In this document: positions 2,246-18,485 of the stretch, in pieces
Numbering within the stretch: the stretch's first letter is position 1
Layout of the letters: each line of letters begins with the position of its first letter
Assembly (NCBI GenBank): GCA_035480855.1
Contig: DATIHJ010000019.1
Coordinates: 16,096 to 80,095 of the forward strand
Length of the DNA: 64,000 nucleotides
DNA from: Patescibacteria group bacterium
Lineage (GTDB): Bacteria > Patescibacteriota > Saccharimonadia > Saccharimonadales > JANWIN01
Reading direction: 5' to 3'
The notes under the pieces: generated by a model
Seen by the model: only the letters and a program-made list of their open reading frames with translations
Databases searched by the model: none
What the model was told of the DNA's origin: nothing
Position numbers and translations under genes: made by a program

Positions 2246-2773
2246 ATGCCAGATTTCAACAAAGTGTTGACACCAGGAGACTACCAAAACGGAAAGGTAA
2301 CCACGGTTGTAGAAATTCCAGAAGGTTCTATGCTCAAGATAGAATGGGACCGTAAAACCGCCTCGTTTATGCTGGACCGTGTAGAACCAGCCATATTTGC
2401 TAAGCCATGCAACTATGGCTTTATTCCTGGCACACTTGATGAGGATGGTGATGAGCTTGATACATTAGTTGTAACGAAAGAACCTATACCAACTGGTGTA
2501 TGGCTTGAAGGCAAGATTGTGGGTGTGCTTAATTTTGAAGATGACGGCGAAATGGACCACAAGATTGTAGTTGTGCCGGCTGATGAGCGTAACACTGGCG
2601 ATAGTGTAAATACTTTGGATGATTTGGGTAATCGCTGGAAACAGAAGATAGAGCATCACTTTAGCCACTACAAAGACCTAAAGAAACCTGGCAGTACAAA
2701 AGTACTAGGTTGGGGTAGTACAGAGGACGCCAAAAAAATCATTGTCGAATGTGTTGAACGATATACCAAGTAG
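2246..2773 (+). CDS. ppa: Inorganic pyrophosphatase (family I)
   Basis: 175 aa. It has the DEDGDELD acidic metal-binding cluster and the typical family I length and motif order. Confidence 0.9.
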   Translation: MPDFNKVLTPGDYQNGKVTTVVEIPEGSMLKIEWDRKTASFMLDRVEPAIFAKPCNYGFIPGTLDEDGDELDTLVVTKEPIPTGVWLEGKIVGVLNFEDDGEMDHKIVVVPADERNTGDSVNTLDDLGNRWKQKIEHHFSHYKDLKKPGSTKVLGWGSTEDAKKIIVECVERYTK

Positions 2774-2776
2774 TAC

Positions 2777-3544
2777 ATGGGCATTACTGAAGATTATCTA
2801 AAGCAGGCAGAAAAATTACTTTTTTCTGTGTTTAAAGATGAGCGGCCGCAGCTTTTAAGTGCATTTGGAAACGCAGAACACGATCTAAAAGAGGACAACA
2901 CAGTTGTGACCAAAATGGACAAAAATATGGAGAAATCCATTAGAACTGTGCTGCGTAAATTTGACCGGGGAGTTGGTATAGAGGGCGAAGAACTAGGTAT
3001 TGAGGGCAGCCGAAAAACTTTCTGGCTGGTTGATCCTATAGACGGCACAGAAGCGTTTATACGTGGTTTGCCAGATCCTAGAAATATGGCAACGTTGATA
3101 GATAATGGTGAGCCGGTTTTTTGCATAGTTTATAAGTTCGTAACAGACGAGTTGTTTATTGCTCGCAAGGGGAAAGGTGCCACCAGAAACGGACAGCCCA
3201 TCCAAGTGAGCGACAGGCCACTTAATAGATCATGGATAGAGTACGGTACAGATTTAATGGACCCCAAGTCTGCTAAGAGATATTTGGCTCTCAGACCCCA
3301 CGTTAATACCTATACGATCATGAAAGACTTTACACCAATTGCTATCGGTGGTTACGAAGGAGGTATATGGGATCAACATAATGGCGGGCCGTGGGACTAT
3401 GCGCCAAGGGCACTACTCATAAAGGAGGCTGGAGGAGTGGTGGCCAATGTTGGTTCAGATAAATACGATTATAAAATCATAAACCTTATCGCTACTAATG
3501 CACGGATATTTGATGAGCTCCATAAATTATATAAAGAAAATTAA
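2777..3544 (+). CDS. Inositol monophosphatase family phosphatase (IMPase/FBPase-like)
   Basis: 255 aa. It contains WLVDPIDGTEAFIRG (the IMPase signature DPIDGT) and WDYAP near the C-terminus. Confidence 0.8.
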   Translation: MGITEDYLKQAEKLLFSVFKDERPQLLSAFGNAEHDLKEDNTVVTKMDKNMEKSIRTVLRKFDRGVGIEGEELGIEGSRKTFWLVDPIDGTEAFIRGLPDPRNMATLIDNGEPVFCIVYKFVTDELFIARKGKGATRNGQPIQVSDRPLNRSWIEYGTDLMDPKSAKRYLALRPHVNTYTIMKDFTPIAIGGYEGGIWDQHNGGPWDYAPRALLIKEAGGVVANVGSDKYDYKIINLIATNARIFDELHKLYKEN

Positions 3545-3556
3545 GGCGTAAATTAA

Positions 3557-4150
3557 GTGAAAAAAGTAATACCAAAAAATGCAATCCTTGTCCCAGATAA
3601 TGCAAAACTGGCATTTAAGGGACAGATTTTTGATGTTTACCAATGGCCGCAGAAACTATTTGATGGTACGAATGCGACATTTGAACTACTAAAGCGCCCA
3701 GATACAGTACAAATAATTGCAATTAAAAATGGCAAACTCATTTTGGTCAACGATGAACAGCCAGGCCGATCTGCTCGATTGCACTTTCCTGGCGGAAGAG
3801 CCGATGAAACGGATGATTCATGGGAAACTGCTGCAAGACGCGAACTGCTAGAAGAAACAGGACTTAGTTTCAAAATCTGGAAGTTAATAAATGTAAGCCA
3901 GCCGATCCCTAAAATGGAATGGTTTGTACCTTGGTATTTGGCAACAGAACTAGAAGCTGAGCAAAAGCAAAATCTGGACGCTGGAGAAAAAATTGAAGTT
4001 AAGGAAGTGGATTTTAATACTGTCCTAAAGATGATAATAGACGGTCACGAACAGACAATGAGCTACGCCATGCCCATATTTTCAAAGTTAAAAAGTATAG
4101 AGGAACTTTTAGGCATGACGGAGTTTACGGGACGTGAGGTAGATAAATAA
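3557..4150 (+). CDS. NUDIX hydrolase
   Basis: 197 aa with a GTG start. The Nudix box is slightly non-canonical in its N-terminal half: GGRADETDDSWETAARRELLEETGL (REUxEExGU is present). Confidence 0.75.
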   Translation: MKKVIPKNAILVPDNAKLAFKGQIFDVYQWPQKLFDGTNATFELLKRPDTVQIIAIKNGKLILVNDEQPGRSARLHFPGGRADETDDSWETAARRELLEETGLSFKIWKLINVSQPIPKMEWFVPWYLATELEAEQKQNLDAGEKIEVKEVDFNTVLKMIIDGHEQTMSYAMPIFSKLKSIEELLGMTEFTGREVDK

Positions 4151-4587: not shown

Positions 4588-5628
4588 ATGAAAACACGGG
4601 TGGCCATTAATGGGTTTGGACGGATAGGCCGTAATGCCTTCAAGATTGCGTTTGACCGCTCAGACCTTGAAATAGTAGCAATTAACGATTTAACAGATAC
4701 AAAAACTCTGGCATACCTACTTAAGCATGACAGCAACTACGGGGAGTACGATAAAAAAGTCAGTTTTGATGATCAAAACATCATAGTAGCCGATAAAAAG
4801 GTTAAAGTACTGGCCGAAAAAGACCCTGCTGCGCTCCCGTGGAAAGAGATGAAAGTAGACCTGGTGATAGAATCCACTGGTCGCTTTACAGATAAAGAAG
4901 GTGCAGAACTGCACATAAAGGCTGGTGCTCAGCGTGTAGTGATATCTGGTCCTACCAAAAGTGATGGCGTAGACACCATTGTGCTTGGAGCCAACGATGA
5001 CAAGCTAGAGGGCGCCAGCAAAGTTATAAGTAATGCTAGTTGTACCACCAATTCGCTTGGTGCCGTTATGGCTATCCTAGATGCCGAGTTTGGAGTTGAG
5101 AAATCTTTGCTAACTACAGTACACAGTTATACTGCTAGTCAGGCGCTGCAAGACGCACCAAACAAGGACCTTCGCGAAGGCCGCAATGCTGCCGAAAATA
5201 TTGTACCGACCACCACTGGTGCAGCAATTGCTGTAACACTTACGCTGCCACAACTAAAAGACAAGTTTGATGGCCTTAGTATCAGGGTACCCACCCCAGT
5301 AGTTTCCATTAGCGATGTTACCGCTGTACTAAAGCGTAGTACAACAGTTGAGGAACTAAACGCTGCTTTTAAAAAAGCTTCAAAAGAGACATTCTATCAA
5401 GGTGTTCTAGGTGTTAGTGAGGAGCCTCTTGTTAGCAGCGATTACATAGGTAACAGCCACTCAGGAATTGTTGATCTACTACTAACCAAAGTAGTAGACG
5501 GTAATCTAGTAAAAGTCATGGTCTGGTACGACAATGAATGGGGTTACAGCAACCGCCTGGTAGAAGTTGTGGCCGATACTGGCAGGCTGCTTCATAAAGC
5601 AGAGGACCACAGCCAGGCACACGAGTAG
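4588..5628 (+). CDS. gap: Glyceraldehyde-3-phosphate dehydrogenase
   Basis: 346 aa. It has NGFGRIGR NAD binding, the active-site SNASCTTN motif and WYDNEWGYS. Confidence 0.95.
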   Translation: MKTRVAINGFGRIGRNAFKIAFDRSDLEIVAINDLTDTKTLAYLLKHDSNYGEYDKKVSFDDQNIIVADKKVKVLAEKDPAALPWKEMKVDLVIESTGRFTDKEGAELHIKAGAQRVVISGPTKSDGVDTIVLGANDDKLEGASKVISNASCTTNSLGAVMAILDAEFGVEKSLLTTVHSYTASQALQDAPNKDLREGRNAAENIVPTTTGAAIAVTLTLPQLKDKFDGLSIRVPTPVVSISDVTAVLKRSTTVEELNAAFKKASKETFYQGVLGVSEEPLVSSDYIGNSHSGIVDLLLTKVVDGNLVKVMVWYDNEWGYSNRLVEVVADTGRLLHKAEDHSQAHE

Positions 5629-5631
5629 CCG

Positions 5632-6084
5632 ATGAAGATTTATATTGGAGCAGACCACGGAGGCTTTAACCTGAGGGAGAGGCTCATAACATATCTGAGC
5701 GATCATAAATACGAGGTTGAGGATGAGGGTGACAAAGAGCTTAACCCAGACGACGATTACCCTCAATTTGCAGCTAAAGTAGCCGGCCAAGTACTAGCTA
5801 GCCAGGATCCTGACCCGCGCGGTATATTAATTTGCAAAGGTGCCCAGGGAATGAGCATGGCTGCAAACCGTTTTAAAGGTATTCGTGCCGCTGTTGTCTG
5901 GAATGCACACGAAGCAGAAATGACGCGTAATGATAACGACAGCAATGTACTATGCCTGACAGCCAGGCTGTTTGATAACGACCCAGCCATGGCAGAGACA
6001 ATTGTAGATTTATGGCTAACGACACCTTTTAGCCGAGCTCCTCGCCATGCCCGCCGCATACAAGAAATTGACCAACTGACTTAG
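5632..6084 (+). CDS. rpiB: Ribose-5-phosphate isomerase B
   Basis: 150 aa in the RpiB/LacAB family. The pattern is GADHGG ... ILICKGAQGMSMAANR ... NDSNVLCL. Confidence 0.88.
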   Translation: MKIYIGADHGGFNLRERLITYLSDHKYEVEDEGDKELNPDDDYPQFAAKVAGQVLASQDPDPRGILICKGAQGMSMAANRFKGIRAAVVWNAHEAEMTRNDNDSNVLCLTARLFDNDPAMAETIVDLWLTTPFSRAPRHARRIQEIDQLT

Positions 6085-6100
6085 AAGGGCTTGATAGAAT

Positions 6101-6748
6101 ATGGCAATAATTTGTCCAACAGTTACCGCCACAAACGAAAAGGAATATGCCGAGCAACTGCATAAGGTAGTACCTCTTTCGAGCCGACTTCATCTGGACT
6201 TTACGGATGGCAAATTTGCACCTACGCAGTCTCCTCCACTCGATAAAGCCTGGTGGCCGGCTGGAATTAACGTAGATCTGCATATTATGTATAAGCAGCC
6301 CCAGGAGTACCTCAAAACAATTTTTAAACTCATGCCAAGACTAGTCATTGTGCACGCAGAAGCCGAAGGTAGTTTTTATAACCTAGCCGAGCAATTAAAA
6401 GCTCATGGTATCAAAGTTGGGCTGGCTTTGCTTAAGCAAACAGCTGTAACCCAAATTGAGTCCGTTTTGGCAGATCTAGACCATGTACTGATCTTTAGTG
6501 GTGATTTGGGCCACTTTGGAGGTACAGTGAACTTGGGGCTATTAGATAAAGTACGAGATATTAAGAACGCAAACCCAAAGATAGAAATTGGCTGGGACGG
6601 GGGCATAAATGACCGTAATGCTGCGTCTCTTATCAAGGGTGGCGTGGATGTTTTAAACGTAGGTGGTTACATACACAACGCAGCCAATCCTGTTCACGCT
6701 TATGCTACACTTAAAGAGATAGCACAAAAAAGCAAACAGATGCCATGA
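6101..6748 (+). CDS. Divergent ribulose-phosphate 3-epimerase family protein
   Basis: 215 aa. The Rpe-like motif order is LHLDFTDGKF, VDLHIMY, VIVHAEA, GLALL, SGDLGHFGG, WDGGIN. It is divergent from canonical Rpe. Confidence 0.6.
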   Translation: MAIICPTVTATNEKEYAEQLHKVVPLSSRLHLDFTDGKFAPTQSPPLDKAWWPAGINVDLHIMYKQPQEYLKTIFKLMPRLVIVHAEAEGSFYNLAEQLKAHGIKVGLALLKQTAVTQIESVLADLDHVLIFSGDLGHFGGTVNLGLLDKVRDIKNANPKIEIGWDGGINDRNAASLIKGGVDVLNVGGYIHNAANPVHAYATLKEIAQKSKQMP

Positions 6749-7599
6749 AGAAGCTAGATATAAAAGAACTTGAGCTCAAAGCTAACGAAATCCGGCAGGA
6801 TATTATCAAAATGCTGCTAGAGGCTGGCAGTGGCCACAGCGCCGGGCCGCTAGGACTGGCAGACATCTTTGCTGCCCTTTATTTTGACATTCTAAAACAC
6901 GATCCCAATAAACCCGATTGGGATGAACGGGATATCTTGGTTCTTAGTAACGGGCATTGTGTTCCTGTCCGGTATGCAACAATGGCTAATGCTGGTTACT
7001 TTGACCGAAAAGAGCTTTTGACATTGCGAAAGTTCGGATCACGTTTGCAAGGACATCCAGAACGACAGCGATTGCCTGGTCTAGAAACTACAAGTGGTCC
7101 CCTGGGTTCAGGCCTAAGCCAAGCTGTTGGTATGGCATTGGCACTACGCATGAACAAGCAACAGTTCCGCTGGGTGTATGTAGTAATGAGCGACGGAGAA
7201 CAGGATGAAGGCAACATTTGGGAAGCCGCTATGCTCGCATCTAAGTATCATCTTAATAACATCATTGCAATTACCGATCGTAATAATATTCAGATAGACG
7301 GACCCACCGAGACAGTAATGCCGCTTGAGAACTTAAAAGCTAAATGGGAAGCATTTGGCTGGCATGTGATAGAAATAGATGGCAATAACATAGAGGCCAT
7401 TATTGACGCCTGTGCTATGGGTAGGGCAATTGTGGAGAAACCGATTATGATAATTGCCCATACAGTTCCGGGTAAGGGTGTGGACTTTATGGAATACGAC
7501 TTCCATTGGCACGGGGCTCCACCCAATGCTGAGCAAGCCAAAAAAGCTCTACATGAACTTCGCACTTTGCAGGGAAGAATCAGGAGTGAACATGAGTGA
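6745..7599 (+). CDS. Transketolase, N-terminal (TPP-binding) subunit
   Basis: 284 aa with GSGHSAGPLG, GHP, and GPLGSG ... DGEQDEGN. Its 4-nt overlap with the upstream gene indicates coupling. Confidence 0.92.
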   Translation: MKKLDIKELELKANEIRQDIIKMLLEAGSGHSAGPLGLADIFAALYFDILKHDPNKPDWDERDILVLSNGHCVPVRYATMANAGYFDRKELLTLRKFGSRLQGHPERQRLPGLETTSGPLGSGLSQAVGMALALRMNKQQFRWVYVVMSDGEQDEGNIWEAAMLASKYHLNNIIAITDRNNIQIDGPTETVMPLENLKAKWEAFGWHVIEIDGNNIEAIIDACAMGRAIVEKPIMIIAHTVPGKGVDFMEYDFHWHGAPPNAEQAKKALHELRTLQGRIRSEHE

Positions 7600-8593
7600 C
7601 ACACACCTAGTAAATGATGTTCTAGCTAAGGATCTAATCCAAGAGGCCATTCGCAAGGGCTTTGGCAGAGGGCTTTTAAAAGCTGGACAGATTGATGATT
7701 CTGTTGTTGCAGCCTGTGCAGATTTGACAGAGTCTACCCAAATGCAGTCATTCAAAGACGAATTCCCAGAGAGATTTATTGAGATTGGCGTGGCAGAACA
7801 AAATCTAGTGACCGTAGGTTCCGGACTAGCTGCAATGGGTAAAATTCCTTTTGTCAGTAGCTATGCCGCGTTCAATCCCGGACGTAACTGGGAGCAAATC
7901 AGAACCACAATTTGCTTAAATAACCAGCCAGTTAAAATTATAGGTTCGCATGCAGGAGTCTCCGTGGGTCCAGATGGCGCTACCCATCAAATGCTAGAAG
8001 ATATAGCCCTTATGAGGGTAATGCCTAATATGATTGTTCTTGCACCAGGAGATAGCCTAGAAGCAGAGAGAGCCACGCTGGCACTTGCTGCAGACAAAGA
8101 ACACCCGTCCTATATGAGATTAGCGCGTGAGGCCACACCTATCTTTACTACACCCAAAACTCCTTTCGCAATTGGCAAAGCTTACGTTTACGCCCCCGGC
8201 GGAGATATAACTATTATTAGCACTGGAGCTATGACTTACCAGGCGCTTGTTGCAGCGGAGAAGCTTTACAAAGACGGTATTGACCTGGAGGTTATTCATT
8301 GTCCAACAATTAAACCATTAGACGCAGTTACCATTTTGCATAGTGTTAAGAAAACTGGAGCTGTCATCACAATTGAAGAAGGCCAGATAAACGGAGGATT
8401 GGGAGGCGCTGTGGCAGAGCTACTTGGCGAGGAGCATCCATCTCCGCTTAAACGTATGGGTATGCATGACCATTTTGGAGAATCTGGTAAGCCGGAAGAG
8501 CTTTTTGAACACTTTGGACTAACCGCCAAACACATAATAATGGCTGCACATGAAATGATGGAACATCATAAATCAGGCGAGAAGAAAGACTAA
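7592..8593 (+). CDS. Transketolase, C-terminal (pyrimidine-binding) subunit
   Basis: I chose the start at 7592 (MSDTHL...), giving an ATGAGTGA overlap with the N-subunit stop. Motifs are IEIGVAEQN and GPDGATHQ. The longer ORF from 7454 overlaps the N subunit. Confidence 0.9.
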   Translation: MSDTHLVNDVLAKDLIQEAIRKGFGRGLLKAGQIDDSVVAACADLTESTQMQSFKDEFPERFIEIGVAEQNLVTVGSGLAAMGKIPFVSSYAAFNPGRNWEQIRTTICLNNQPVKIIGSHAGVSVGPDGATHQMLEDIALMRVMPNMIVLAPGDSLEAERATLALAADKEHPSYMRLAREATPIFTTPKTPFAIGKAYVYAPGGDITIISTGAMTYQALVAAEKLYKDGIDLEVIHCPTIKPLDAVTILHSVKKTGAVITIEEGQINGGLGGAVAELLGEEHPSPLKRMGMHDHFGESGKPEELFEHFGLTAKHIIMAAHEMMEHHKSGEKKD

Positions 8594-8595
8594 TT

Positions 8596-9507
8596 ATGCC
8601 ACTTACTCTTAGGCAAATACGAGAGAACTGTACCAAAGCCCGAGCTACTATGGCCAGAGCTAGGGCAGAACATTTTGCACTAGGGGCCTTTAACCTAGAT
8701 AACCAAGAGACACTGGTAGCTGTAGCTAAGGCGGCCAAGGCTAAAAACGCACCAGTGTTAGTAGAGGTCAGTAAGGGTGAGGTAGATGCCATGGGCCTGG
8801 ATAATGTCCGTGACATGGTAGACAACTATAAGGCGGATTATGGCCTGGAAATGTACATTAATCTAGACCACTCGCCTAGTGTTAAGGATGCCATTGCCGG
8901 CATCGAAGCGGGGTTTGAGTTTATCCACATTGACGTTTCACAGGCCAGCCACGACGCGACGTTAGAGGTTATCATGGCAGAAACAGTCAAGGTAGTGGAG
9001 GCTGCCAAGCTAACCGGAGCGCTAGTAGAAAGTGAGCCACACTATTTTGGTGGCGGATCCAATGTATTTACTCAAAACATAGATTATGAAGAGATCAAAA
9101 AAACGTTTAGTACACCAGAGAGTGCCAAGGCCTTTGTAGAGTCCACCGGTATAGATACTTATGCTGCTGCCATTGGTAATCTGCACGGCAAATATCCAGT
9201 TCCTAAAGTGCTGGATTTAGAGCTTTTACAGCGGGTCAGGGATGCTATAGATTGCAACATTTCGCTTCACGGTGGCAGTGATACACCAGGCCATTATTTT
9301 GTGGATGCGGTGCGGATTGGTGTGAGTAAAATCAATATAAACTCCGACATGCGCTACGCCTACCGTAAAACCCTAGAGCATGTCCTAGCAGAAAACCCTA
9401 CGGAATACGCCGTAGTTAAACTTATGGATAAGGTTATTGAAGCCGTACAAGCAGTAGTGGACAGCAAGATAGACATGTTTAATTCGGCAGGTAAGGCACA
9501 ACCATAA
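8596..9507 (+). CDS. fba: Fructose-bisphosphate aldolase, class II
   Basis: 303 aa with NLDHS, HIDVS, GNLHG and LHGGSDTP, the class II aldolase metal-binding pattern. Confidence 0.85.
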   Translation: MPLTLRQIRENCTKARATMARARAEHFALGAFNLDNQETLVAVAKAAKAKNAPVLVEVSKGEVDAMGLDNVRDMVDNYKADYGLEMYINLDHSPSVKDAIAGIEAGFEFIHIDVSQASHDATLEVIMAETVKVVEAAKLTGALVESEPHYFGGGSNVFTQNIDYEEIKKTFSTPESAKAFVESTGIDTYAAAIGNLHGKYPVPKVLDLELLQRVRDAIDCNISLHGGSDTPGHYFVDAVRIGVSKININSDMRYAYRKTLEHVLAENPTEYAVVKLMDKVIEAVQAVVDSKIDMFNSAGKAQP

Positions 9508-9523
9508 GAGGTTTGCCTTTTTT
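9493..9523 (+). terminator. Rho-independent terminator ending the gap-fba operon
   Basis: The arms AAGGCACAACC and GGTTTGCCTT form a 10-bp stem with one bulged C and a 6-nt loop, followed by a T-run. The stem overlaps the fba stop codon. Confidence 0.7.
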
Positions 9524-9583
9524 GGTAGTCGTATGGGACAATAGCAGAGAATAACGACATAAATTAGACAGGAAAAAGGTGGG

Positions 9584-10582
9584 ATGAAACAGCTGGATGT
9601 AATCTCTATAGGCGACATTGTAACAGATGCATTTATACGTCTTATTGATGACGAGGCCCACACTTATAGCAACGAAGAAGGTCAATGGCTAGCGATGCCT
9701 TTTGCCACTAAGGTGCCCTTTGACCATGCTGAAATCATAGAGGGGGTAGGCAATGCAGCCAACGCAGCTGTTAGTTTTGCTAGACTCGGTTTGTCGACCG
9801 CATTTGTAACTAATGTAGGCGAAGATAAATATGGACGTGATATGATCCATGCCTTGCATAAAAACAAGGTGGATAGCCGGTTTGTACGTGTTAATCCAGA
9901 TAAGCTTAGTAATTATCACTATGTACTTTGGTATAAGGAAGAACGTACCATACTGATCAAGCACGAGCAGTATGACTACTACTGGCCTCATTTACGCACA
10001 AGTGAAATACCTCGTTGGCTGTACTTTAGTTCACTTTCCAAAGGAGCCTTAGATTTTCATGATGATTTGGCAGACTGGCTTGAAAAGCACATGGACGTAA
10101 AGCTTGCTTTCCAGCCTGGAACTTTCCAAATGGAAGCCGGTGCTGAACGACTAAAGCGTATTTATGCTCGTACCGAAGTACTCATAGTCAATCGAGAAGA
10201 GGCGGCACTAGTTGGGGGTGGTGATCACGATAACATCCCTGATTTATTCAAACATTTGCACGCACTCGGGCCTAAGACGGTCGTAATTACAGACGGGCCA
10301 AAGGGCGCCTATGCCAGCAGTGGCGAACAAGCATTCAAAATGCCTCCATATCCTGACCCAAAGCCTCCATATGAGCGCACAGGTGCTGGCGATGCCTTTG
10401 CCTCAACTCTCGTAGCGGCACTTATTAAAGGAAACACTATAGAAGGTGCTCTGCAGTGGGCACCAATTAACTCTATGAGCGTAGTGCAAAAAGTTGGAGC
10501 ACAAGCAGGACTTCTCAGCGAAGAAGATTTGGGTGAGTTACTCAAAAAAGCCCCTGCCTGGTACAAAGCTGAACCGCTGTAA
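9584..10582 (+). CDS. PfkB-family carbohydrate/nucleoside kinase
   Basis: 332 aa. It has the N-terminal GVGNAANAA motif and the C-terminal PfkB signature TGAGDAF. The substrate is not assignable from sequence. Confidence 0.8.
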   Translation: MKQLDVISIGDIVTDAFIRLIDDEAHTYSNEEGQWLAMPFATKVPFDHAEIIEGVGNAANAAVSFARLGLSTAFVTNVGEDKYGRDMIHALHKNKVDSRFVRVNPDKLSNYHYVLWYKEERTILIKHEQYDYYWPHLRTSEIPRWLYFSSLSKGALDFHDDLADWLEKHMDVKLAFQPGTFQMEAGAERLKRIYARTEVLIVNREEAALVGGGDHDNIPDLFKHLHALGPKTVVITDGPKGAYASSGEQAFKMPPYPDPKPPYERTGAGDAFASTLVAALIKGNTIEGALQWAPINSMSVVQKVGAQAGLLSEEDLGELLKKAPAWYKAEPL

Positions 10583-10596
10583 TTATATTCTGCTTA

Positions 10597-10605
10597 TGCT
10601 AAACT
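10597..10605 (+). promoter_or_regulatory. Extended -10 box (TGCTAAACT) 10 nt upstream of the ATG at 10616
   Basis: TGn plus TAAACT. There is no Shine-Dalgarno between the box and the start codon. Confidence 0.4.
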
Positions 10606-10615
10606 TATAGGGACT

Positions 10616-11866
10616 ATGAGCAGACTCTTATCGGAGCTTTTGGGTGCGGCTGAGCCTATGTTTACAGGGACAATTCAGCAGCTGGAGCGCATTAGTGGCG
10701 ATCCAAATATTGATGTACGTTTAACAGCAGAAATTGCCACAAAGGTGCGCCAAAAAACACGCGAACTGGGTCTTGACCCAGCTGATACAACCACAAAAGA
10801 GCTGTACCATGCCCTGCAAGGGCTAGTACAAATCCAAGATAATTTTTTAGTGAAGGCGCTTGGAGGCAGTGATCCAACAGACGTATCAGATCTGTTACCA
10901 CGCATTATAAAAAAAGTAGAGTCCTTGCCACAAAGTAAGCGCTGCTGGGTACTAAAACACAGTGTAGCTAAGCGCTTACTCAAAGATATGCCGCCCAAAC
11001 AAGTCATGAAACAACTTGGACATCGTTCAATAGATTCTATGCTAAAGCGAGAGAATATAGATGAGCTTTTTGTAGCACTTCAATTAGCCCAGTCACAGGC
11101 CTGGCTTGAACGCTTCACAGCAAGCTATAAAAAATTGCAGCCCAGTGATTTTGAAATCCGGCCAATTAGTATCGTTCAGTTTTCGCCCAAACGCTGGAAA
11201 GTATTAAGTAAAGATTTTGCAATACAAAATCGCCACGCCATAACCTACGTTAAAGAGCTAGGTATTATTGCAGTACTACCAATACCAGTTGAACATTTGC
11301 GCGGCATTTGTATCACACTGTTGCCCCTTTTATTGCATGCAATGAACGAAATACGGCTATATAGTGCCTTTTTTAAACTTCAGCAAGTTAAACCAGATTT
11401 TGCAAAAATTGTTATTACGACTTTGACTTCCGAGCCAGTAGGAATGGTAAGCCTAGCAGGCCAACCGTTACATTGGCGGACCATCCAACGGTTTTATGGC
11501 AGGCAATCACCTAGTCGCCATCCAGAGGTGTTTGAACCGCATGTGCAACCAGAGGATTTGCAGTGGCAGCACGCCGAAGAGTTAATTTACCGAATTGAAC
11601 CTGCTCTAAAATTTTGGGAGGGACTAGACTATGTAGGAGCCCCAAACAGTGGACAACCAGTTTCACTAAACTTGCTTGATAATGCCATAAGTTATTGCAA
11701 TGACTTGCCTTACGGCCAACAGATGGTGACGCATTTCCAGGATAGTTTGTGGAATGAAGTTTTTATGCGCTATATGGATAACGAACCAGTTGAACAGCAA
11801 GTATTACAGCAACTAGATGCAGCTATTAACGTGCCAGAAGTAAGTACAGTGTTTGGAGAATTTTGA
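10616..11866 (+). CDS. Hypothetical protein, 416 aa, no recognisable domain
   Basis: A long uninterrupted ORF with its own promoter-like box. Its stop overlaps the start of the downstream LOG-family gene by 4 nt. Confidence 0.6.
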   Translation: MSRLLSELLGAAEPMFTGTIQQLERISGDPNIDVRLTAEIATKVRQKTRELGLDPADTTTKELYHALQGLVQIQDNFLVKALGGSDPTDVSDLLPRIIKKVESLPQSKRCWVLKHSVAKRLLKDMPPKQVMKQLGHRSIDSMLKRENIDELFVALQLAQSQAWLERFTASYKKLQPSDFEIRPISIVQFSPKRWKVLSKDFAIQNRHAITYVKELGIIAVLPIPVEHLRGICITLLPLLLHAMNEIRLYSAFFKLQQVKPDFAKIVITTLTSEPVGMVSLAGQPLHWRTIQRFYGRQSPSRHPEVFEPHVQPEDLQWQHAEELIYRIEPALKFWEGLDYVGAPNSGQPVSLNLLDNAISYCNDLPYGQQMVTHFQDSLWNEVFMRYMDNEPVEQQVLQQLDAAINVPEVSTVFGEF

Positions 11867-12432
11867 TCATGTATCAAATATGTATTTCCGGAGCTGCAAA
11901 AGGCCATAGCGTAGATATGGGCCATGAATTAGCACGTACTACTGGTGAACTTATAGCCAAGGGCGGGCATGCTCTATTAACTGGCGCAACAATGGGGCTC
12001 ACTAATGCCGCTGCCCAAGCCTATAAGCAAGCTGGTGGCTTAATGAGCATTGGAATTAGCCCGGCTTCCAGCAAAGTAGAACATGTTATGAAATATCGGC
12101 TACCCACCAAGCCATACGACGTAATTCTATACACCGCTATGCACTATATCGGGCGAGACGTTTTGCTGATTAATTCCAGCGACGCTGTAATAAGTATTGG
12201 TGGCCGGTTGGGTACCCTCAACGAGGCGATCATCGCACTAGAAACTCACACTCCAATTGCGTTTTTGGAAGGAGGTGGCGGTACGGGAGCCGACATAAGA
12301 GAAATTCTGAGATCTGCTGGGCGGGAGGAAAGCGACGATATACTGTTTGGCGCCGACCCTCAGATACTTATAGACCAGCTAACCAAGATTCTAGACACGG
12401 ATCACAAACGCTATATTGATTTGTATGAGTAG
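11863..12432 (+). CDS. LOG / TIGR00725-like (SLOG superfamily) Rossmann protein
   Basis: 189 aa. It has an N-terminal ICISGAAKG strand-loop and a GGRLGTLNEAI motif matching the LOG-family PGGxGTxxE signature. Confidence 0.65.
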   Translation: MIMYQICISGAAKGHSVDMGHELARTTGELIAKGGHALLTGATMGLTNAAAQAYKQAGGLMSIGISPASSKVEHVMKYRLPTKPYDVILYTAMHYIGRDVLLINSSDAVISIGGRLGTLNEAIIALETHTPIAFLEGGGGTGADIREILRSAGREESDDILFGADPQILIDQLTKILDTDHKRYIDLYE

Positions 12433-12471
12433 TGTCGTTCTAAAAGTCCAGGTATTTCAATAGTTACTTCT

Positions 12472-12480
12472 TGCTACAAT
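12472..12480 (+). promoter_or_regulatory. Extended -10 box (TGCTACAAT) 6 nt upstream of the uvrB ATG
   Basis: TACAAT lies at 12475-12480 and the ATG at 12487. There is no Shine-Dalgarno. Confidence 0.5.
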
Positions 12481-12486
12481 TAGTAG

Positions 12487-14451
12487 ATGACTAAGTTTAA
12501 ACTTCAGGCGGAGTATAAACCTACTGGCGATCAGCCGTCGGCTATTGCCGAATTGACTCAGGGCTTAGACGCAAAAACTAAAGAGCAGGTGCTTTTAGGC
12601 GTAACGGGTAGTGGTAAGACCTTTACCATGGCTAATCTTATCCAAAATACTGGTAAGCCCACGCTAGTATTAAGCCACAACAAAACCTTAGCTGCCCAGC
12701 TATATAGTGAGTTCAAGCATTTCTTTCCAGATAACGCCGTACATTACTTTGTTAGCTATTTTGATTACTACCAGCCAGAGGCATATATGCCCCGTACTGA
12801 TACCTATATAGAAAAAGATAGCCAAATAAACGAAGAAATTGACCGATTGCGGCACGCTGCGACAGACGCATTACTGACCAGGCGTGATGTAATAATTGTT
12901 GCCAGTGTTAGCTGTATATACGGCATTGGCTCTGTTGAGGATTACAACGATCTAGCAATTACTGTTAAGCGCGGTGAGCGACGTGTACGAGATAAGCTAT
13001 TACGTCAGCTTACAGACATACAGTACCAGCGTAACGACATAGACTTTCATCGTTCAACATTTCGTGTTCGCGGTGATGTAGTGGATGTTTACCCGGCGGG
13101 CGAGGAACTTGCATATAGGCTTGAACTCTTTGGCGAAGAAGTAGAGCGCATTACCAAAATCGATCCTTTGACCGGAGAAATCTTGGCAAAAATAGAAGAG
13201 CTTAAGATTTTCCCTAGCTCCCACTACGTAACACCACAGGACAAGCTTAAACTGGCCCTCGGCCAGATTCAGTCAGAGCTTGGGGAGAGGTTGGCTTATT
13301 TCAAAAAGAACGGGCAGCTTCTGGAAGCACAGAGACTGGAGCAGCGCACAAAGTTTGACCTGGAAATGCTAGAGGAAACGGGCTTTGTAAAAGGCATAGA
13401 AAATTATAGTCGTTACCTGACCAACCGTGAACCTGGTGAACAACCAGCCACACTTCTAGATTATTTCCCAGACGATTACCTTATGTTTGTAGATGAAAGT
13501 CACATGACAATTCCCCAAGTCCGTGGCATGTACAACGGTGATCGAGCCCGCAAGGAGGTACTGGTGGACTATGGCTTCCGTTTGCCAAGCGCCCTGGACA
13601 ATCGCCCACTAACCTTTATTGAGTTCGAAAAGCATATGAATCAAGTTGTCTATGTCAGCGCCACACCAGCAGAGTTTGAGCTATCTCGTAGCCCCAAACC
13701 TGCCCAACAAGTCATTCGTCCCACAGGACTTCTGGATCCAGTTATCGAAGTCCGACCTATTGATGGCCAAATAGACGATCTGATTGCCGAAATCCGAGAA
13801 ACCATAGCAAAGCGCCGTCGAGTACTGGTAACAACGCTTACCAAGCGTATGGCAGAAGATCTAACTGACTATCTCAAGGAAATTAACATCAAAGTTACCT
13901 ATCTTCATAGTGATGTTGAAACGCTGGAACGAACAGACATATTGAGAGACTTACGCCTGGGGGTATACGACGTTGTAGTGGGTATTAACTTACTGCGTGA
14001 AGGCTTAGATTTACCAGAAGTAAGCTTAGTAACCATTTTAGATGCAGACAAAGAAGGATTTTTGCGAAGTGAGCAGGCACTTATCCAGACAATTGGACGG
14101 GCTGCAAGGCACATTGAGGGTCGTGTGATCATGTATGCAGACTCAATCACAAAAAGCATGAAACGTGCAATTGACGAGACAAACCGCCGCCGAAAAATAC
14201 AGGAAGACTACAACAAAAAGCACGGCATAACACCGCAAGGTATTAGCAAAACTATAGAAAAGGGTATGCGCCCTGACTTACCTGAGGAAGCCAAGCGCGC
14301 CAAACTGGACCTAAAGAAAATCCCCAAGGATGAATACGGTAACCTAATAAAAGCCTTAACGAGTCAGATGGATCTGGCAGCTGCAAACCTTCAGTTTGAA
14401 ACCGCTGCAGAGCTGCGCGATATAATTGCCGATATAAAAGCGAAGCTATAA
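12487..14451 (+). CDS. uvrB: Excinuclease ABC subunit B
   Basis: 654 aa with GVTGSGKT Walker A, DESH, helicase motifs and a C-terminal UVR motif (FETAAELRD). Confidence 0.96.
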
Positions 14452-14844
14452 CTTAACTACGCTTTGATATTTTGGCTGGGGTTCGCTAGTTTGTTGATAC
14501 GGAGGATCTACAACGCGTGTAGTTATTAAATCTGTCAAACCTTCAATATTAAGCAGGCGACCAATTCTGCGTATTCTATTGTCGTTAGGTTCAGTTATTA
14601 CTTTTGTAACTTCTTGCCCAGCATAAAGTACAGCATAAGCGGCCCCAACAGCAGTTTGCCCGGCTTCATATATTGCTTGCCTAGTTTTACTATTTGCTTC
14701 ACTAACCGCTTGTTCACCTATAATTTTTGCAGTTAAAAAGATGCTGGTTACTTCTAAGGTACTGGTAGTTTCTTCTACTAATGCAGTAAGAGGGAATAAT
14801 TCCTCTAATTGACGATCTGGTATATCGAGTACGGCTGATGCCAT
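14446..14844 (-). CDS. Hypothetical protein (132 aa)
   Basis: Called from the ORF alone. It is convergent with uvrB, overlapping its 3' end by 6 nt, and appears AT-richer than its neighbours by eye. Confidence 0.4.
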
Positions 14845-15251: not shown

Positions 15252-16673
15252 ATGGGTGCGTGGCCGGCTATTGAAGATATTGCATGTCAGGTACAGGCTG
15301 GTAAGTTAAGTGCTGTAGAACTTGTAGAGAGTTCATTAAAACTAGTCAAAGAGAAAGCGGAATATAAAGCAATTATTGCCACTATAGATGAAAGAGCACA
15401 CACGCGAGCGAAAGAGATTGATGCAACTGTCAAAAGTGGGAAAAATGCTGGTCGTTTAGCAGGAGTACCATTTATCGCTAAAGATAATTTTTTGGTTTTT
15501 GGAGCAGATACGACTGCCGCGAGTAATATATTAAAAGGTTTTGATGCGCCCTACCAAGCAACTGCAATTGAGCGATTGGAAGCAGAGGGCGCCATATGTG
15601 TAGCCAAAGCCAATCTGGATGCATTTGCACACGGTTCGAGCACCGAGAATAGTGATTTCTTTACTACCCATAACCCGCATGACAAACAAAGGGTGCCTGG
15701 TGGGTCATCTGGTGGCTCAGCAGCTGCCGTTGCCTTAGAAATGGCACCATTTGCACTTGGTACAGATACCGGTGGATCCATACGCTTGCCGGCTTCTTTT
15801 TGTGGAGTTGTTGGTTATAAACCAACCTACGGATTAGTATCGCGGTCTGGTGTAATTGCCATGGCAAGCAGTACTGATGTAATAGGGCCACTGGCGCGTA
15901 CCGTTGAAGATGCAGCTTTAGTTTTGGATGTTATGTCTGGCCAAGATCCACTAGATAGCACTACCATTAAAAGAGATGAAACTGGTTACGGGGTATTATC
16001 TGGAAATCTGAAGGGCAAAAAAATTGGCGTTGTCAAAGAGTATATGGATGGTGGAGTGGAGGCTGGAGTAGAAAAATGCATAAAGGCAGTTCTTACATCT
16101 CTAGAAAAAGCTGGTGCTGAGCTTGTAGAAATAAGCTTGCCTTCGGCTCCGTTAGCCCTACCCGCCTACTATGTTATTTGCCCTGCAGAGGTTAGCAGTA
16201 ATCTTAGTCGCTATGACGGACAACGGTTTGGCTATAGCGATAAGGACGCCAAGGATTTGGTTCAAAGTTATAGCAAATCGCGTTCAAAGGGATTCAATAA
16301 CGAAAACAAGAGAAGGATTATGATAGGTACTTATGTGCTTAGCAGCGGCTACTACGATGCATATTATAAACAGGCCCAAATGGTCAGGACTAAGCTGATA
16401 GATGAATTTGACGATGCATTTAAAAAGGTAGATTTTTTGGCTGGGCCAGTTTCTCCAACAACCGCCTTCAAAATTGGTCAAAACAGCACACCGCTACACA
16501 TGTATTTAACGGATATCATGACGGTTGCAGCTAATCTAACCGGGATACCTGCAATTAGCGTACCGGTTGGTGAAAGCGGTGGATTGCCAGTGGGGCTACA
16601 GCTGATGGCATCACAGAAAAAAGACCGGGAGTTGCTTTGGCTTGCTAAAGAAACCCAAGAGGCACTGCTATGA
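15252..16673 (+). CDS. gatA: Asp/Glu-tRNA amidotransferase subunit A
   Basis: 473 aa with the amidase signature GGSSGGSAAAVA and the GTDTGGSIR motif. Confidence 0.95.
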   Translation: MGAWPAIEDIACQVQAGKLSAVELVESSLKLVKEKAEYKAIIATIDERAHTRAKEIDATVKSGKNAGRLAGVPFIAKDNFLVFGADTTAASNILKGFDAPYQATAIERLEAEGAICVAKANLDAFAHGSSTENSDFFTTHNPHDKQRVPGGSSGGSAAAVALEMAPFALGTDTGGSIRLPASFCGVVGYKPTYGLVSRSGVIAMASSTDVIGPLARTVEDAALVLDVMSGQDPLDSTTIKRDETGYGVLSGNLKGKKIGVVKEYMDGGVEAGVEKCIKAVLTSLEKAGAELVEISLPSAPLALPAYYVICPAEVSSNLSRYDGQRFGYSDKDAKDLVQSYSKSRSKGFNNENKRRIMIGTYVLSSGYYDAYYKQAQMVRTKLIDEFDDAFKKVDFLAGPVSPTTAFKIGQNSTPLHMYLTDIMTVAANLTGIPAISVPVGESGGLPVGLQLMASQKKDRELLWLAKETQEALL

Positions 16674-17026
16674 GGCTAAGAGTATTTCGCCGTCGTATTA
16701 AGCCGCATAAATTTAAGCAGCAGTGGTTAGAACTACAGCGCCTTTGTGCTAACCGTGAAACTTGGCAGCTAGCTGTTTTAACTGCAGATAAGTTACTAGA
16801 CGAGGCACTCAAAAAGAGACGGTTTAAAGGTAAGAGTATGGGTGAGCGAATAGTATCTGCCCAGCATCAACTAACAGATAATGATGGTGTCTGGTTTGCG
16901 CATAACCTAGCTAAAAAAGTTAAAGACAAATCTAGCATAAAACTTCGCGAAAGCGATGTTAAGAAGTCGCTAGTTGGTGTGCGGCAAGCACTACGTGACC
17001 TTGGAGCGCTACATGGCAAAAACTAG
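16670..17026 (+). CDS. Hypothetical basic protein (118 aa) inserted between gatA and gatB
   Basis: The ORF overlaps the gatA stop by 4 nt (ATGA) and the gatB start by 14 nt. I recognised no family. Confidence 0.5.
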   Translation: MRLRVFRRRIKPHKFKQQWLELQRLCANRETWQLAVLTADKLLDEALKKRRFKGKSMGERIVSAQHQLTDNDGVWFAHNLAKKVKDKSSIKLRESDVKKSLVGVRQALRDLGALHGKN

Positions 17027-18485
17027 CACCGAGTATTTGCCAACTATTGGTATTGAGTGCCATGTGCAGCTGGCTACAAAAACCAAGCTTTTTGCGGCAG
17101 TGGGCAATGATGCCCGCGGTGCAGCACCAAACACTCTTATTAGCCATATTTGTTTGGGTATGCCAGGCGCGCTGCCAGTACTGAATGAAAAGGTAGTGGA
17201 GCTGGCATCGCGAATGGCTTTTGCCCTGGGTACGAAGCCTCAGCACTACAGTATGTTTGAGCGCAAACATTACTTTTATCCAGATCTGCCCAAGGGCTAT
17301 CAAATTAGTCAATTACACCAGCCGATCGTTGTCGGCGGCAGTGTTCAAATAGAAGTAGATGGTAAAACTAGTTCAGTTAGCATTAACCGCGTCCAGATAG
17401 AAGAAGATGCCGGAAAAAACACTCATCCTAGCGGCAAAGATTACAGTTTAGTTGATCTTAACCGTGCCGGCACGCCACTTTTAGAAATTGTGTCAGAGGC
17501 AGATATGCACTCGCCAGCCGAAGCTAAGGCATATGTGCGTGAGCTTTACCTACTAGTGAAATATGCTGGGGTGTCTGATGCAGACCTTTATCATGGCAAT
17601 ATGCGTTTTGATGTAAACGTTAGTGTTAGCAAAGATCCGAACAAGCTAGGAATACGTAGTGAAACAAAAAACCTAAACTCATTTAAAAGTGTAGAAAAGG
17701 CCGCCGAATACGAGATAAAACGCCAAATAGAAATTCTCGAAAAAGGTCAAAAAGTTGTGCAAGAAACTCGGGGATGGGACGATGCTAAGCAAAAGACGCT
17801 TAGCCAGCGCGGCAAAGAAGAGGCGCATGATTATCGCTATATGCCAGAACCGGACATTCCACCAATTGAGCTCACGAAAACTTACATAGATAAAATTGCT
17901 GCAGAAATGCCGGCTCTCCCAGACGACTGGCGAAAACGCCTAAATTCGCTAGGGCTCAACACAAGCTACATTGATACATTGCTCCAAGCTGAGGTTGAGG
18001 ATGAGCGGTTTAGTTACTTAGCCTTAATAGAAGATAATCTATCTCATCCGGAAATTGCTAAACATCTAGCAAATTGGTTTGTGAATGTGGAGATTCCTTT
18101 ACGCCAGGAACACAAAGCTAGTGATGACATGAAAGACTCGCAAAGGCCAGACATGTATATTCAGATATATGAGCTTGCAAAGGCCAATAAGCTTAGCTCT
18201 ACAAACGCCAAGACACTTCTTAGTAACTTGCTCATAGAAGGAATAAAACCAGAAAATATAGAGGAGTATGCCCAGGAACAAGGCTATATCCAAGTATCCA
18301 ACGAGTCAGAAATTGCCAAAATTGTAGAAGAGGTTATTAAAGAAAACACCCAAGCTGCTGAGGATGTTAAAAAAGGTGAGATAAAAGCAATTGGCTTTTT
18401 GGTTGGCCAGGTAATGCAAAAATCAAAAGGCCAGGCCAATCCACAACTTGCCCAAGAACTTCTCAAAAAACAGCTTAAGGGCTAG
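17013..18485 (+). CDS. gatB: Asp/Glu-tRNA amidotransferase subunit B
   Basis: I chose the start at 17013 (MAKTSTEYLPTIGIECHVQL, the canonical GatB N-terminus). Motifs include YFYPDLPKGYQISQ and a C-terminal YqeY-like tail. Confidence 0.93.
   Translation: MAKTSTEYLPTIGIECHVQLATKTKLFAAVGNDARGAAPNTLISHICLGMPGALPVLNEKVVELASRMAFALGTKPQHYSMFERKHYFYPDLPKGYQISQLHQPIVVGGSVQIEVDGKTSSVSINRVQIEEDAGKNTHPSGKDYSLVDLNRAGTPLLEIVSEADMHSPAEAKAYVRELYLLVKYAGVSDADLYHGNMRFDVNVSVSKDPNKLGIRSETKNLNSFKSVEKAAEYEIKRQIEILEKGQKVVQETRGWDDAKQKTLSQRGKEEAHDYRYMPEPDIPPIELTKTYIDKIAAEMPALPDDWRKRLNSLGLNTSYIDTLLQAEVEDERFSYLALIEDNLSHPEIAKHLANWFVNVEIPLRQEHKASDDMKDSQRPDMYIQIYELAKANKLSSTNAKTLLSNLLIEGIKPENIEEYAQEQGYIQVSNESEIAKIVEEVIKENTQAAEDVKKGEIKAIGFLVGQVMQKSKGQANPQLAQELLKKQLKG

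Follow-up and report, generated by a model that had tools for sequence, protein, structure and literature searches.

X416, a protein of 416 residues encoded in a 64,000-nucleotide stretch of Saccharibacteria (TM7) DNA (the window), has a genuine partner in a LOG-family protein, since related lineages fuse X416 to a LOG. In the window the protein is encoded immediately ahead of a protein of SLOG cluster4, and we propose that X416 and SLOG together act as a two-component NMP phosphoribohydrolase that would feed ribose-5-phosphate to the adjacent pathway, a reading to which we give an even chance of being correct. A lineage-wide hypothetical protein is tied in this way, through fusion, displacement and tight coupling, to a LOG-type nucleotide N-glycosidase, giving a SLOG cluster4/TIGR00725 subfamily its first functional clue from a partner and providing a working context for the ~400 unannotated residues of proteins labelled "TIGR00730 family Rossman fold protein". 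Saccharibacteria are ultrasmall epibionts, and how acquired nucleotides are routed into their carbon and energy metabolism is not well defined; the locus provides a testable handle on it. In T. rhizospherense, one Saccharibacteria genome, no de novo nucleotide or PRPP synthesis was found (PMC6031116), and its nucleotides must therefore come from other cells.

The gene pair and its surroundings

Both open reading frames exist as the earlier note on this DNA described them (Table 1), and the motifs that it quoted are found in the downstream protein, ICISGAAKG (residues 4-12) and GGRLGTLNEAI (residues 111-121), numbered from the ATG start. The 4-nt stop/start overlap that it reported requires a TTG start at 11863, but homologues favour the ATG at 11869. 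Because an identical database protein (P0390) has 187 aa, and because SLOG homologues are 186-191 aa long with N-termini of the form MYQ... or MK..., we place the start at ATG 11869, 2 nt past the TGA stop of X416 (11864-11866). Whichever of the two starts applies, the X416 and SLOG genes are tightly coupled.

Table 1. Features in and upstream of the X416/SLOG pair, in positions of the window.
Feature	Position	Strand	Remarks
GAPDH, RpiB, Rpe, split transketolase, class II FBP aldolase	4588..9507	+	co-directional, upstream of PfkB
PfkB-family sugar or nucleoside kinase	9584..10582	+	PF00294, E 3.5e-38; conserved neighbour 5' of X416
Gap between PfkB and X416, 33 nt	10583..10615	+	holds TGCTAAACT (10597-10605) and GGGA 5' of the ATG
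X416	10616..11866	+	416-aa ORF; uncharacterised family, seen only in Saccharibacteria
SLOG cluster4 (TIGR00725-like) protein, 187 aa	11869..12432	+	PF18306 match; identical database protein has 187 aa

The pair had also been credited with a -10 box of its own. The element, TGCTAAACT, is present and ends 10 nt ahead of the X416 ATG, within the gap that follows the PfkB stop, but it lacks a -35 partner; a promoter scan returned no site 5' of X416 and no two-hexamer promoter in 10583-10615. No terminator was predicted in the gap between the PfkB stop and X416, and an Rfam scan of 9000-13000 gave no match and no riboswitch. That the pair is co-transcribed with the genes before it is no less likely than that it has a promoter of its own.

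X416 and SLOG form the end of a row of pentose-phosphate and glycolysis genes, right after PfkB. GAPDH, RpiB and Rpe were identified by Pfam, while transketolase and aldolase were named on the strength of ORF translations, related loci matched by tblastn, and the Pfam labels of orthologues; the same row is also present in two related loci (L081 and L083). A PfkB gene lies upstream of X416 in 76 of 80 loci and represents two different PfkB subfamilies, the protein of the window reaching the cut-off of no NCBIfam model. The conserved block as a whole reads Tkt-FBA-PfkB-X416-SLOG-UvrB-GatCAB and includes clearly unrelated genes such as UvrB. Across 80 species the X416 locus occupies the same chromosomal slot, a constancy consistent with vertical inheritance, and no signal of horizontal transfer was seen in GC content, which is uniform, or in the IMG/VR viral contigs, which hold no relatives.

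Linkage, displacement and fusion

X416 belongs to a large family, with 2780 homologues at E<=1e-3 (922 representatives at 50% identity), whose taxonomic range, as seen here, is Saccharibacteria only. The SLOG gene lies directly 3' of X416 on the same strand in 70 of the 80 species loci, and in one further locus it lies 3' of X416 beyond a 2.6-kb insertion. Given the number of X416 homologues and a gene order shared by so many species, the pairing is far above chance. The SLOG start falls between -4 and +3 nt from the X416 stop in 56 of 71 pairs, and the order is kept beside X416 relatives of just 28-29% identity. The conserved linkage on which the earlier note had let its pairing stand or fall is thus decisively present, at X416 identities of 27-85%. 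A mirror-tree comparison on 32 loci gave a partial r of 0.35 for X416 and SLOG, no higher than the 0.37 obtained for SLOG and FBA. In Southlakia epibionticum the cluster4 gene follows PfkB immediately, without an intervening X416, and is non-essential by Tn-seq (supplement to PMC10633639); the locus thus does not in every case require X416.

Five loci without the cluster4 gene instead carry a canonical type-II LOG, head-to-head with X416 and ~110-130 bp upstream of it. Elsewhere X416 and a PF03641 LOG are fused into a single protein of 643-684 aa, in at least 120 90%-identity clusters, with the X416 part N-terminal to the LOG domain, and at locus L081 the fusion fills the same chromosomal slot, with FBA on one side and UvrB on the other. 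An NJ tree of X416 keeps the fused and the head-to-head sequences in distinct clades and has the cluster4 state at its deepest branches. In both of these clades the replacing type-II LOG retains every catalytic motif (GGGxGxMEA, RK and PGGFGTxDE). The fused LOG domain matches 1wek at 4e-53 and shares 44-46% identity, with a TM of ~0.9, with type-II LOGs including the phosphoribohydrolases 5wq3 and 5zi9, for which the identity is 45%; that of the fusion P0123 passes the cut-off for LOG proper, with 113 bits. It belongs, then, to the class of 1wek (TT1465), 5wq3 (C. glutamicum), 5zi9 (S. coelicolor) and 9us2 (N. meningitidis), although the LOG chains returned from the PDB are ~170-280 residues long and none has an X416-like domain. 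Either the pair or the fusion occurs in Saccharibacteria of many different sources, including the cultivated strain TM7i. That the two genes are a functional unit, as had been claimed, is borne out by a linkage that survives the swap of the cluster4 SLOG for a canonical LOG and ends in fusion.

The AF2 model of the natural fusion has a disordered linker of ~55 residues and a pTM of 0.58, and because of this it yields no confident interdomain interface. A protein of 535 aa, P0243, was considered as a second fusion type and rejected, its C-terminus having no Pfam match; by inspection, that C-terminus reads as a low-complexity, out-of-frame translation.

The two proteins

Searches of Pfam, NCBIfam, PADLOC and PDB sequences returned no match to X416, which agrees with the earlier reading of the protein as one without a known family. 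The sole match of a profile search and phmmer against the PDB was a de novo designed protein (E 0.029), and Pfam searches with 35 X416 homologues gave only sub-threshold chance matches, such as INTS5_N in 9 of the 35 (best E 0.003). The fold is equally without precedent in the libraries compared: the AF2 model is confident (pLDDT 83.8, pTM 0.79), and Foldseek found nothing at E<=0.001 in either the PDB (best E 0.64) or BFVD (best E 0.25), so that the structural comparison suggested beforehand leads to the same answer as the sequence searches. Among 109 sequences, with identities down to 27%, 25 polar or aromatic residues are invariant, 13 of them acidic, which suggests that X416 may itself have an active site or a binding site. 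Conservation in X416 is highest in two blocks, residues 241-260 and 301-320.

The assignment of the downstream protein to LOG/SLOG is upheld by PF18306 (LDcluster4), its best Pfam family, at 101 bits (cut-off 26.3; E 6e-29), with SLOG residues 2-146 aligned on positions 2-129 of the 151 in the model; PF18306 is carried by all 120 SLOG homologues among the matches listed. Its membership of TIGR00725, also put forward in the earlier note, fails in the strict sense, at 71 bits against a cut-off of 106.9, even so JGI labels the homologues as TIGR00725 family. Nor is it LOG proper, scoring 19 bits against 27 for PF03641 and 39.1 against 96.35 for TIGR00730. The Saccharibacteria subfamily is further set apart from TIGR00725/cluster4 by an invariant block of its own, E71-H72-x2-K75-Y76-R77-L78-P79. 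The closest solved relatives are TM1055 (1rcu), 6y01 and 2iz5, the matches to 6y01 (E 1.1e-7) and 2iz5 (E 1.1e-3) covering ~110-130 residues and indicating family-level homology only. None of the proteins of these families is described with an X416-like partner, and no molybdenum-cofactor gene was seen among the annotated genes of the window segment. Neither the family libraries nor the solved structures searched assign a biochemical function to SLOG cluster4/TIGR00725, and a literature search on TIGR00725, or on TIGR00730/LOG together with Saccharibacteria, found one cytokinin interpretation and nothing beyond it.

As a homologue of type-II LOG, the SLOG of the window keeps the equivalents of an Arg and a Glu of the catalytic motifs. 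R96 and E119, at least 95% conserved in 72 orthologues, align with the Arg of FFGRK and the Glu of PGGFGTxDE (hhalign probability 97.2%); the leading Pro and the Lys of the LOG motifs (PGGxGTxxE, RK) are absent. The LOG loop GGGxGxM is represented by TGATxGxP, invariant as T38-G39-A40-T41-x-G43-x-P45. Two observations on this protein count against a catalytic reading: this alteration of the LOG phosphate loop, and the presence among its nearest solved relatives of molybdenum-cofactor carriers, which are ligand-binding and non-hydrolysing.

A proposed route from nucleotides to ribose-5-phosphate, and its alternatives

In the model that we favour, the SLOG cluster4 protein would be the catalytic subunit, a putative nucleotide N-glycosidase that splits nucleoside or deoxynucleoside 5'-monophosphates at their N-glycosidic bond into free base and ribose-5-phosphate, as in the LOG/PpnN reaction. 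We propose X416 as the accessory partner of this LOG-type protein, either regulatory or a second catalytic component: it would gate or regulate SLOG activity, or perform an adjacent step, and the two proteins would be made in fixed proportion from their tightly coupled genes, presumably to act as a physical complex. As the RpiB-Rpe-transketolase-aldolase-PfkB row ends with these coupled genes, ribose-5-phosphate set free from scavenged nucleotides would be expected to flow into glycolysis and the non-oxidative pentose-phosphate pathway, and the freed bases could be salvaged. Ribose-5-phosphate is the product of the LOG and PpnN reaction (PMC6717881). The earlier note had left two readings side by side; we favour nucleotide salvage that feeds the pentose-phosphate genes, given the constant place of the pair as last in the row, the swap for a bona fide type-II LOG and the retained Arg/Glu equivalents, and find no support for a sensor of a conflict system.

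A known system with the same domain logic is E. coli PpnN (YgdH), a nucleotide 5'-monophosphate nucleosidase with the gating domains PAG1 (DUF4478) and PAG2 (DUF3412). As in X416-LOG, a LOG-fold catalytic core is joined to large accessory parts. However, the Pfam searches matched only the LOG domain, and neither X416, its 35 homologues nor the fusions gave a DUF4478 or DUF3412 match; the PpnN-type structures 6gfl, 6gfm and 9hs1 are aligned by Foldseek to the fusion over its LOG domain alone and are not returned for X416 by itself, and the accessory part is encoded as a polypeptide of its own in the window. X416 was on these grounds rejected as a PAG-domain homologue.

A bolder version of the model, which we hold only tentatively and think rather doubtful as a whole, takes X416 as a new fold through which a LOG-type nucleosidase would become a gated entry, made of two components, for burning the ribose of scavenged nucleotides. 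PfkB would make the NMP, X416-SLOG would free its ribose-5-phosphate and the neighbouring enzymes would harvest it. In this version X416 might sense alarmones or the energy charge, in the manner of the PpnN PAG domains. Archaea and other CPR bacteria use an AMP-phosphorylase/RuBisCO pathway for nucleotide ribose, and the locus would be the Saccharibacteria counterpart of that pathway.

The same two proteins could instead be a housekeeping pair of sensor and effector, in which a non-catalytic SLOG binds a nucleotide-derived ligand, much as molybdenum-cofactor carriers and SLOG domains of the ThsA type are binders, and controls X416, an effector or enzyme that tunes carbon flux or some other process. 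We consider this unlikely, though the ligand carriers 6y01 and 2iz5 among the nearest solved relatives, the altered phosphate loop and the invariant X416 residues, with the site of its own that they suggest, all speak for it, and SLOG proteins such as YpsA are regulators (PMC6459960). The association of a SLOG-superfamily protein with a specific partner protein or domain is likewise seen in YpsA-GpsB of Firmicutes and in Thoeris ThsA. A purely sensory SLOG is, however, hard to reconcile with the exchange of cluster4, in two clades, for a type-II LOG with all of its catalytic motifs, and with the conservation of the Arg/Glu equivalents in the cluster4 orthologues themselves.

LOG enzymes are by definition cytokinin-activating, and the LOG of a soil Saccharibacterium has been interpreted in this sense (PMC6031116), from which it could be argued that a LOG-type activity frees a cytokinin-like or otherwise modified purine toward a host or plant, with X416 providing substrate specificity. 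This appears improbable, as Saccharibacteria of such varied origin, strain TM7i included, carry the pair or the fusion, and neither an isopentenyl-transferase gene nor one for base modification is linked to it, the neighbours being central-carbon genes.

A conflict or defence module, in which a nucleotide-sensing SLOG would act with an uncharacterised effector, is very improbable and was rejected. Thoeris ThsA and related systems do use SLOG domains as sensors (PMC6459960), but PADLOC returned nothing for X416 and one spurious 13-bit match for SLOG, no SIR2, TIR, SMODS or 2TM partner and no defence island is found at the locus, and the neighbours are PfkB and UvrB. The locus sits in a fixed housekeeping slot, the same in 80 species, of uniform GC and without relatives in IMG/VR, and the SLOG is exchangeable for a metabolic type-II LOG.

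In our preferred model, of a phosphoribohydrolase feeding its neighbours, the synteny with the pentose-phosphate genes could itself be historical rather than functional. To extend this to X416 and SLOG, as mere neighbours in a frozen block of a reduced genome, is scarcely credible, and the idea was rejected: the conservation of the entire block, unrelated UvrB included, agrees with such freezing, and the mirror-tree values show no closer tie between X416 and SLOG than between SLOG and FBA, but it is contradicted by the X416-LOG fusions, by the re-acquisition of a LOG beside X416, in a different orientation, after cluster4 was lost, and by stop and start codons that overlap or abut in most X416-SLOG pairs.

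Association of X416 with SLOG-superfamily partners

We propose that the 416-aa protein encoded in the window (X416) very probably works together with a LOG-type protein, and the sequence comparisons point to a nucleotide enzyme of the LOG type whose partner protein or domain had not been recognised before. Among 80 loci from different GTDB species, a SLOG cluster4 gene lies immediately 3′ of X416 on the same strand in 70, and in L062 it is also found downstream, past a 2.6-kb insertion. The SLOG start falls -4 to +3 nt from the X416 stop in 56 of 71 pairs, and the order is kept beside X416 relatives of only 28-29% identity. The coupling of the two genes put forward in the earlier note is upheld by these 70 loci and by two further arrangements, replacement by LOG and fusion. 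As the whole block TktN-TktC-FBA-PfkB-X416-SLOG-UvrB-GatCAB is conserved, synteny alone is weak evidence for a functional link, and we judge the link to be functional because these exceptions decide the matter.

In five loci (L049, L058, L066, L068 and L080) the cluster4 gene is absent and a canonical LOG, encoded on the other strand, faces X416 head-to-head from ~110-130 bp upstream; L051, whose contig stops just before X416, is a sixth member by grouping. Members of a separate clade encode X416 and a canonical LOG of this kind as a single in-frame fusion. A search with one such fusion (P0123, 658 aa) gave at least 120 clusters at 90% identity, of 643-684 aa and covering 95-100% of the query, with PF03641 present in all those listed and taxa including Saccharibacteria strain TM7i, Saccharimonadaceae and Microsaccharimonas. 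NCBI labels these fusions "TIGR00730 family Rossman fold protein", and on an 808-kb contig the fusion occupies the identical slot, FBA to UvrB. The AF2 model of the fused protein (pTM 0.58) has a disordered linker at residues 388-443. In a mirror-tree comparison over 32 loci the X416-SLOG signal (partial r 0.35) did not exceed that of SLOG with FBA (0.37). An NJ tree of X416 recovers the fused and the head-to-head clades each as monophyletic and not as sisters, and its deepest branches are in the cluster4-linked state, so X416 has kept a neighbour from the SLOG superfamily despite one partner replacement at least, probably two, and a fusion. L065 and L078 are the only loci in which neither a SLOG nor a LOG gene was found within the available sequence; that of L045 ends directly after X416. 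The L062 insertion (6234-8795) is foreign-looking DNA of ~2.6 kb in which overlapping ORFs crowd both strands, and in the X416 tree this locus stands closer to the fused clade than any other of cluster4 type.

The SLOG protein and its likely activity

Profile comparison places the downstream protein in Pfam SLOG cluster4 (PF18306, E 6e-29, 101 bits), which bears out its earlier assignment to the SLOG/LOG superfamily, and both motifs reported for it, ICISGAAKG and GGRLGTLNEAI, are present. The claimed TIGR00725 membership does not hold, the score being 71 bits against an NCBIfam cut-off of 106.9; its TIGR00730 score is 39 bits (NCBIfam) and its PF03641 (LOG) match in Pfam is weak at 19 bits, and both LOG proper and a TIGR00725 equivalog are rejected by the curated cut-offs. 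The closest solved structures are TM1055 (1rcu, 5e-8) and the molybdenum-cofactor binding/carrier proteins 6y01 and 2iz5.

In the X416 fusions the LOG domain is of the typical type-II kind (1wek match, E 4e-53), with 44-46% identity to 5wq3, 5zi9 and 9us2 (TM ~0.9 to the model), and its motifs GGGxGxMEA, RK and PGGFGTxDE are invariant. The type-II LOG group and PpnN of E. coli convert nucleoside 5′-monophosphates to base and ribose-5-phosphate (PMC6717881). The window cluster4 protein is homologous to this fused domain (hhalign probability 97.2%, E 2.8e-11), and its invariant R96 and E119 align to the catalytic Arg and Glu of LOG. The cluster4 phosphate loop differs from that of LOG (TGATxGxP), and a subfamily-specific invariant block is present (E71-H72-x2-K75-Y76-R77-L78-P79). 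As a real LOG replaces the cluster4 gene at the same locus, this suggests that the two proteins do the same job.

The SLOG start is most likely the ATG 2 nt past the X416 stop, because P0390, a database entry of identical sequence, has 187 aa and homologues of 186-191 aa begin MYQ.../MK...; the 4-nt stop/start overlap described earlier requires a TTG start at 11863 and is disfavoured. The -10 box assigned to the pair, TGCTAAACT, is indeed present, 10 nt upstream of the X416 ATG, but the promoter/terminator scan found neither a two-hexamer promoter nor a terminator in the 33-nt gap after PfkB, and transcription running on from the genes before it is no less probable than initiation at a separate promoter. 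Rfam gave no element around the pair.

Features of the window around the X416-SLOG pair
Feature	Position	Strand	Remark
Inorganic pyrophosphatase, IMPase-family phosphatase, NUDIX hydrolase	2246-4150	+	just upstream of GAPDH/RpiB/Rpe
GAPDH, RpiB, Rpe		+	upstream of X416
Split transketolase, class II FBP aldolase		+	upstream of X416
PfkB kinase	9584-10582	+	directly upstream of X416
TGCTAAACT	10597-10605		in PfkB-X416 gap
X416	10616-11866	+	ORF, 416 aa
SLOG cluster4 gene	11869-12432	+	likely start ATG 11869; ORF end 12432
ORF in uvrB-gatC interval	14446-14844	-	132 aa, no Pfam match
gatA	15252-16673
ORF between gatA and gatB	16670-17026	+	118 aa, no Pfam match
gatB	16974-18485

X416, an undescribed family

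X416 is undescribed in the family libraries searched, in agreement with the earlier failure to place it: searches of Pfam, NCBIfam, PADLOC and PDB sequences gave no match, a profile built from 35 homologues retrieved no PDB entry, and not one of these 35 exceeds a Pfam threshold. A word-indexed search returned 2780 homologues at E<=1e-3, and an exhaustive search 922 family representatives at 50% identity, 502 of them at E<=1e-30; IMG/VR held no relatives. The relatives derive from assemblies of Saccharibacteria or Saccharimonadales, two entries with other labels aside. L074 (DATHJH010000004.1, labelled Candidatus Limnocylindria) and the fusion P0299 (labelled Pedobacter sp.) are of Saccharibacteria type with full Saccharibacteria synteny, and probably stem from mis-binned or contaminant contigs.

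Mean column identity in the 35-sequence alignment is 66%. Across 109 sequences of every gene arrangement, with identity down to 27%, conservation reaches at least 96% at 47 positions, among them 13 acidic residues, R182, K254, R288 and H309, with peaks at residues 241-260 and 301-320. The AlphaFold2 model is confident (pLDDT 83.8, pTM 0.79) and predicts a helical bundle at the N-terminus with mixed alpha/beta parts after it. Neither the PDB (best E 0.64) nor BFVD (best E 0.25) yielded a Foldseek relative at E<=0.001, so this structural comparison, like the sequence searches, leaves X416 without a family, and the model would represent a new fold relative to solved and viral structures only. One homologue (P0122, L086 2378-4126) carries a 167-aa N-terminal extension, the first ~75 residues of which repeat the N-terminal helical domain, and this duplication suggests a module that can stand by itself; the order FBA-PfkB-X416-cluster4 is kept at that locus.

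Proposed model and metabolic setting

In our model, an NMP or dNMP phosphoribohydrolase would have the SLOG protein as its catalytic subunit, with X416 as the lineage-specific partner of that protein, and the ribose-5-phosphate released would enter the adjacent RpiB/Rpe/transketolase/aldolase/GAPDH route. We regard this reaction and pathway as an evenly balanced proposition. More tentatively, X416 might be a gating/regulatory module, like the PAG domains of PpnN in logic, or a second enzyme acting on substrate or product. PpnN, with its LOG core and accessory gating domains, is the closest known system in working logic; by sequence and fold comparison X416 is no PAG domain. That the SLOG protein is a ligand sensor controlling an X416 effector is unlikely, and production of a signalling base by the LOG-type activity more so, as it fits poorly with conservation across Saccharibacteria from many sources and with the central-carbon neighbours. 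A defence module, contradicted by our data, is barely credible, and pure synteny without shared function, contradicted by LOG replacement and fusion, even less.

The source genome of the window belongs to the Saccharibacteria (TM7, Patescibacteria). A genome-resolved study of a single Saccharibacterium, T. rhizospherense, detected no route for making nucleotides or PRPP de novo and inferred dependence on scavenged nucleic acids (PMC6031116). In the window all listed genes upstream of X416 share its strand, GC content is uniform over the region, and the pyrophosphatase, IMPase-family and NUDIX genes, which encode further nucleotide/sugar-phosphate enzymes, may be part of the same metabolic row. 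In 76 of the 80 loci the gene ahead of X416 encodes a PfkB-family kinase. This kinase comprises two subfamilies in different clades (L003, L009, L011, L012, L016 and others), with mean identities to the window PfkB of 68% and 32%, and X416 identity is ~53% in both groups; the pattern points either to an exchange of the kinase or to a pair of paralogues of which different clades kept different members. The cultivated Saccharibacterium Southlakia epibionticum ML1 has two cluster4 SLOG genes (at SEML1_0423/0424 and SEML1_0546/0547), of which SEML1_0546 directly follows PfkB with no X416 between and is non-essential by Tn-seq, and the second adjoins a gene for a protein with a phosphoribosyltransferase domain (PMC10633639 supplement). 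The link between SLOG, PfkB and the pentose-phosphate genes thus persists where X416 is missing from the locus, and X416 looks like an accessory component.

In 14 related loci the slot of the ORF between gatA and gatB is occupied by a homologous gene of ~138 aa (36-68% identity). It is a conserved, uncharacterised gene lying inside the saccharibacterial gatCAB operon. In L081 and L083 the encoded protein has a hydrophobic start resembling a transmembrane helix, and the window ORF may start upstream of its listed ATG.
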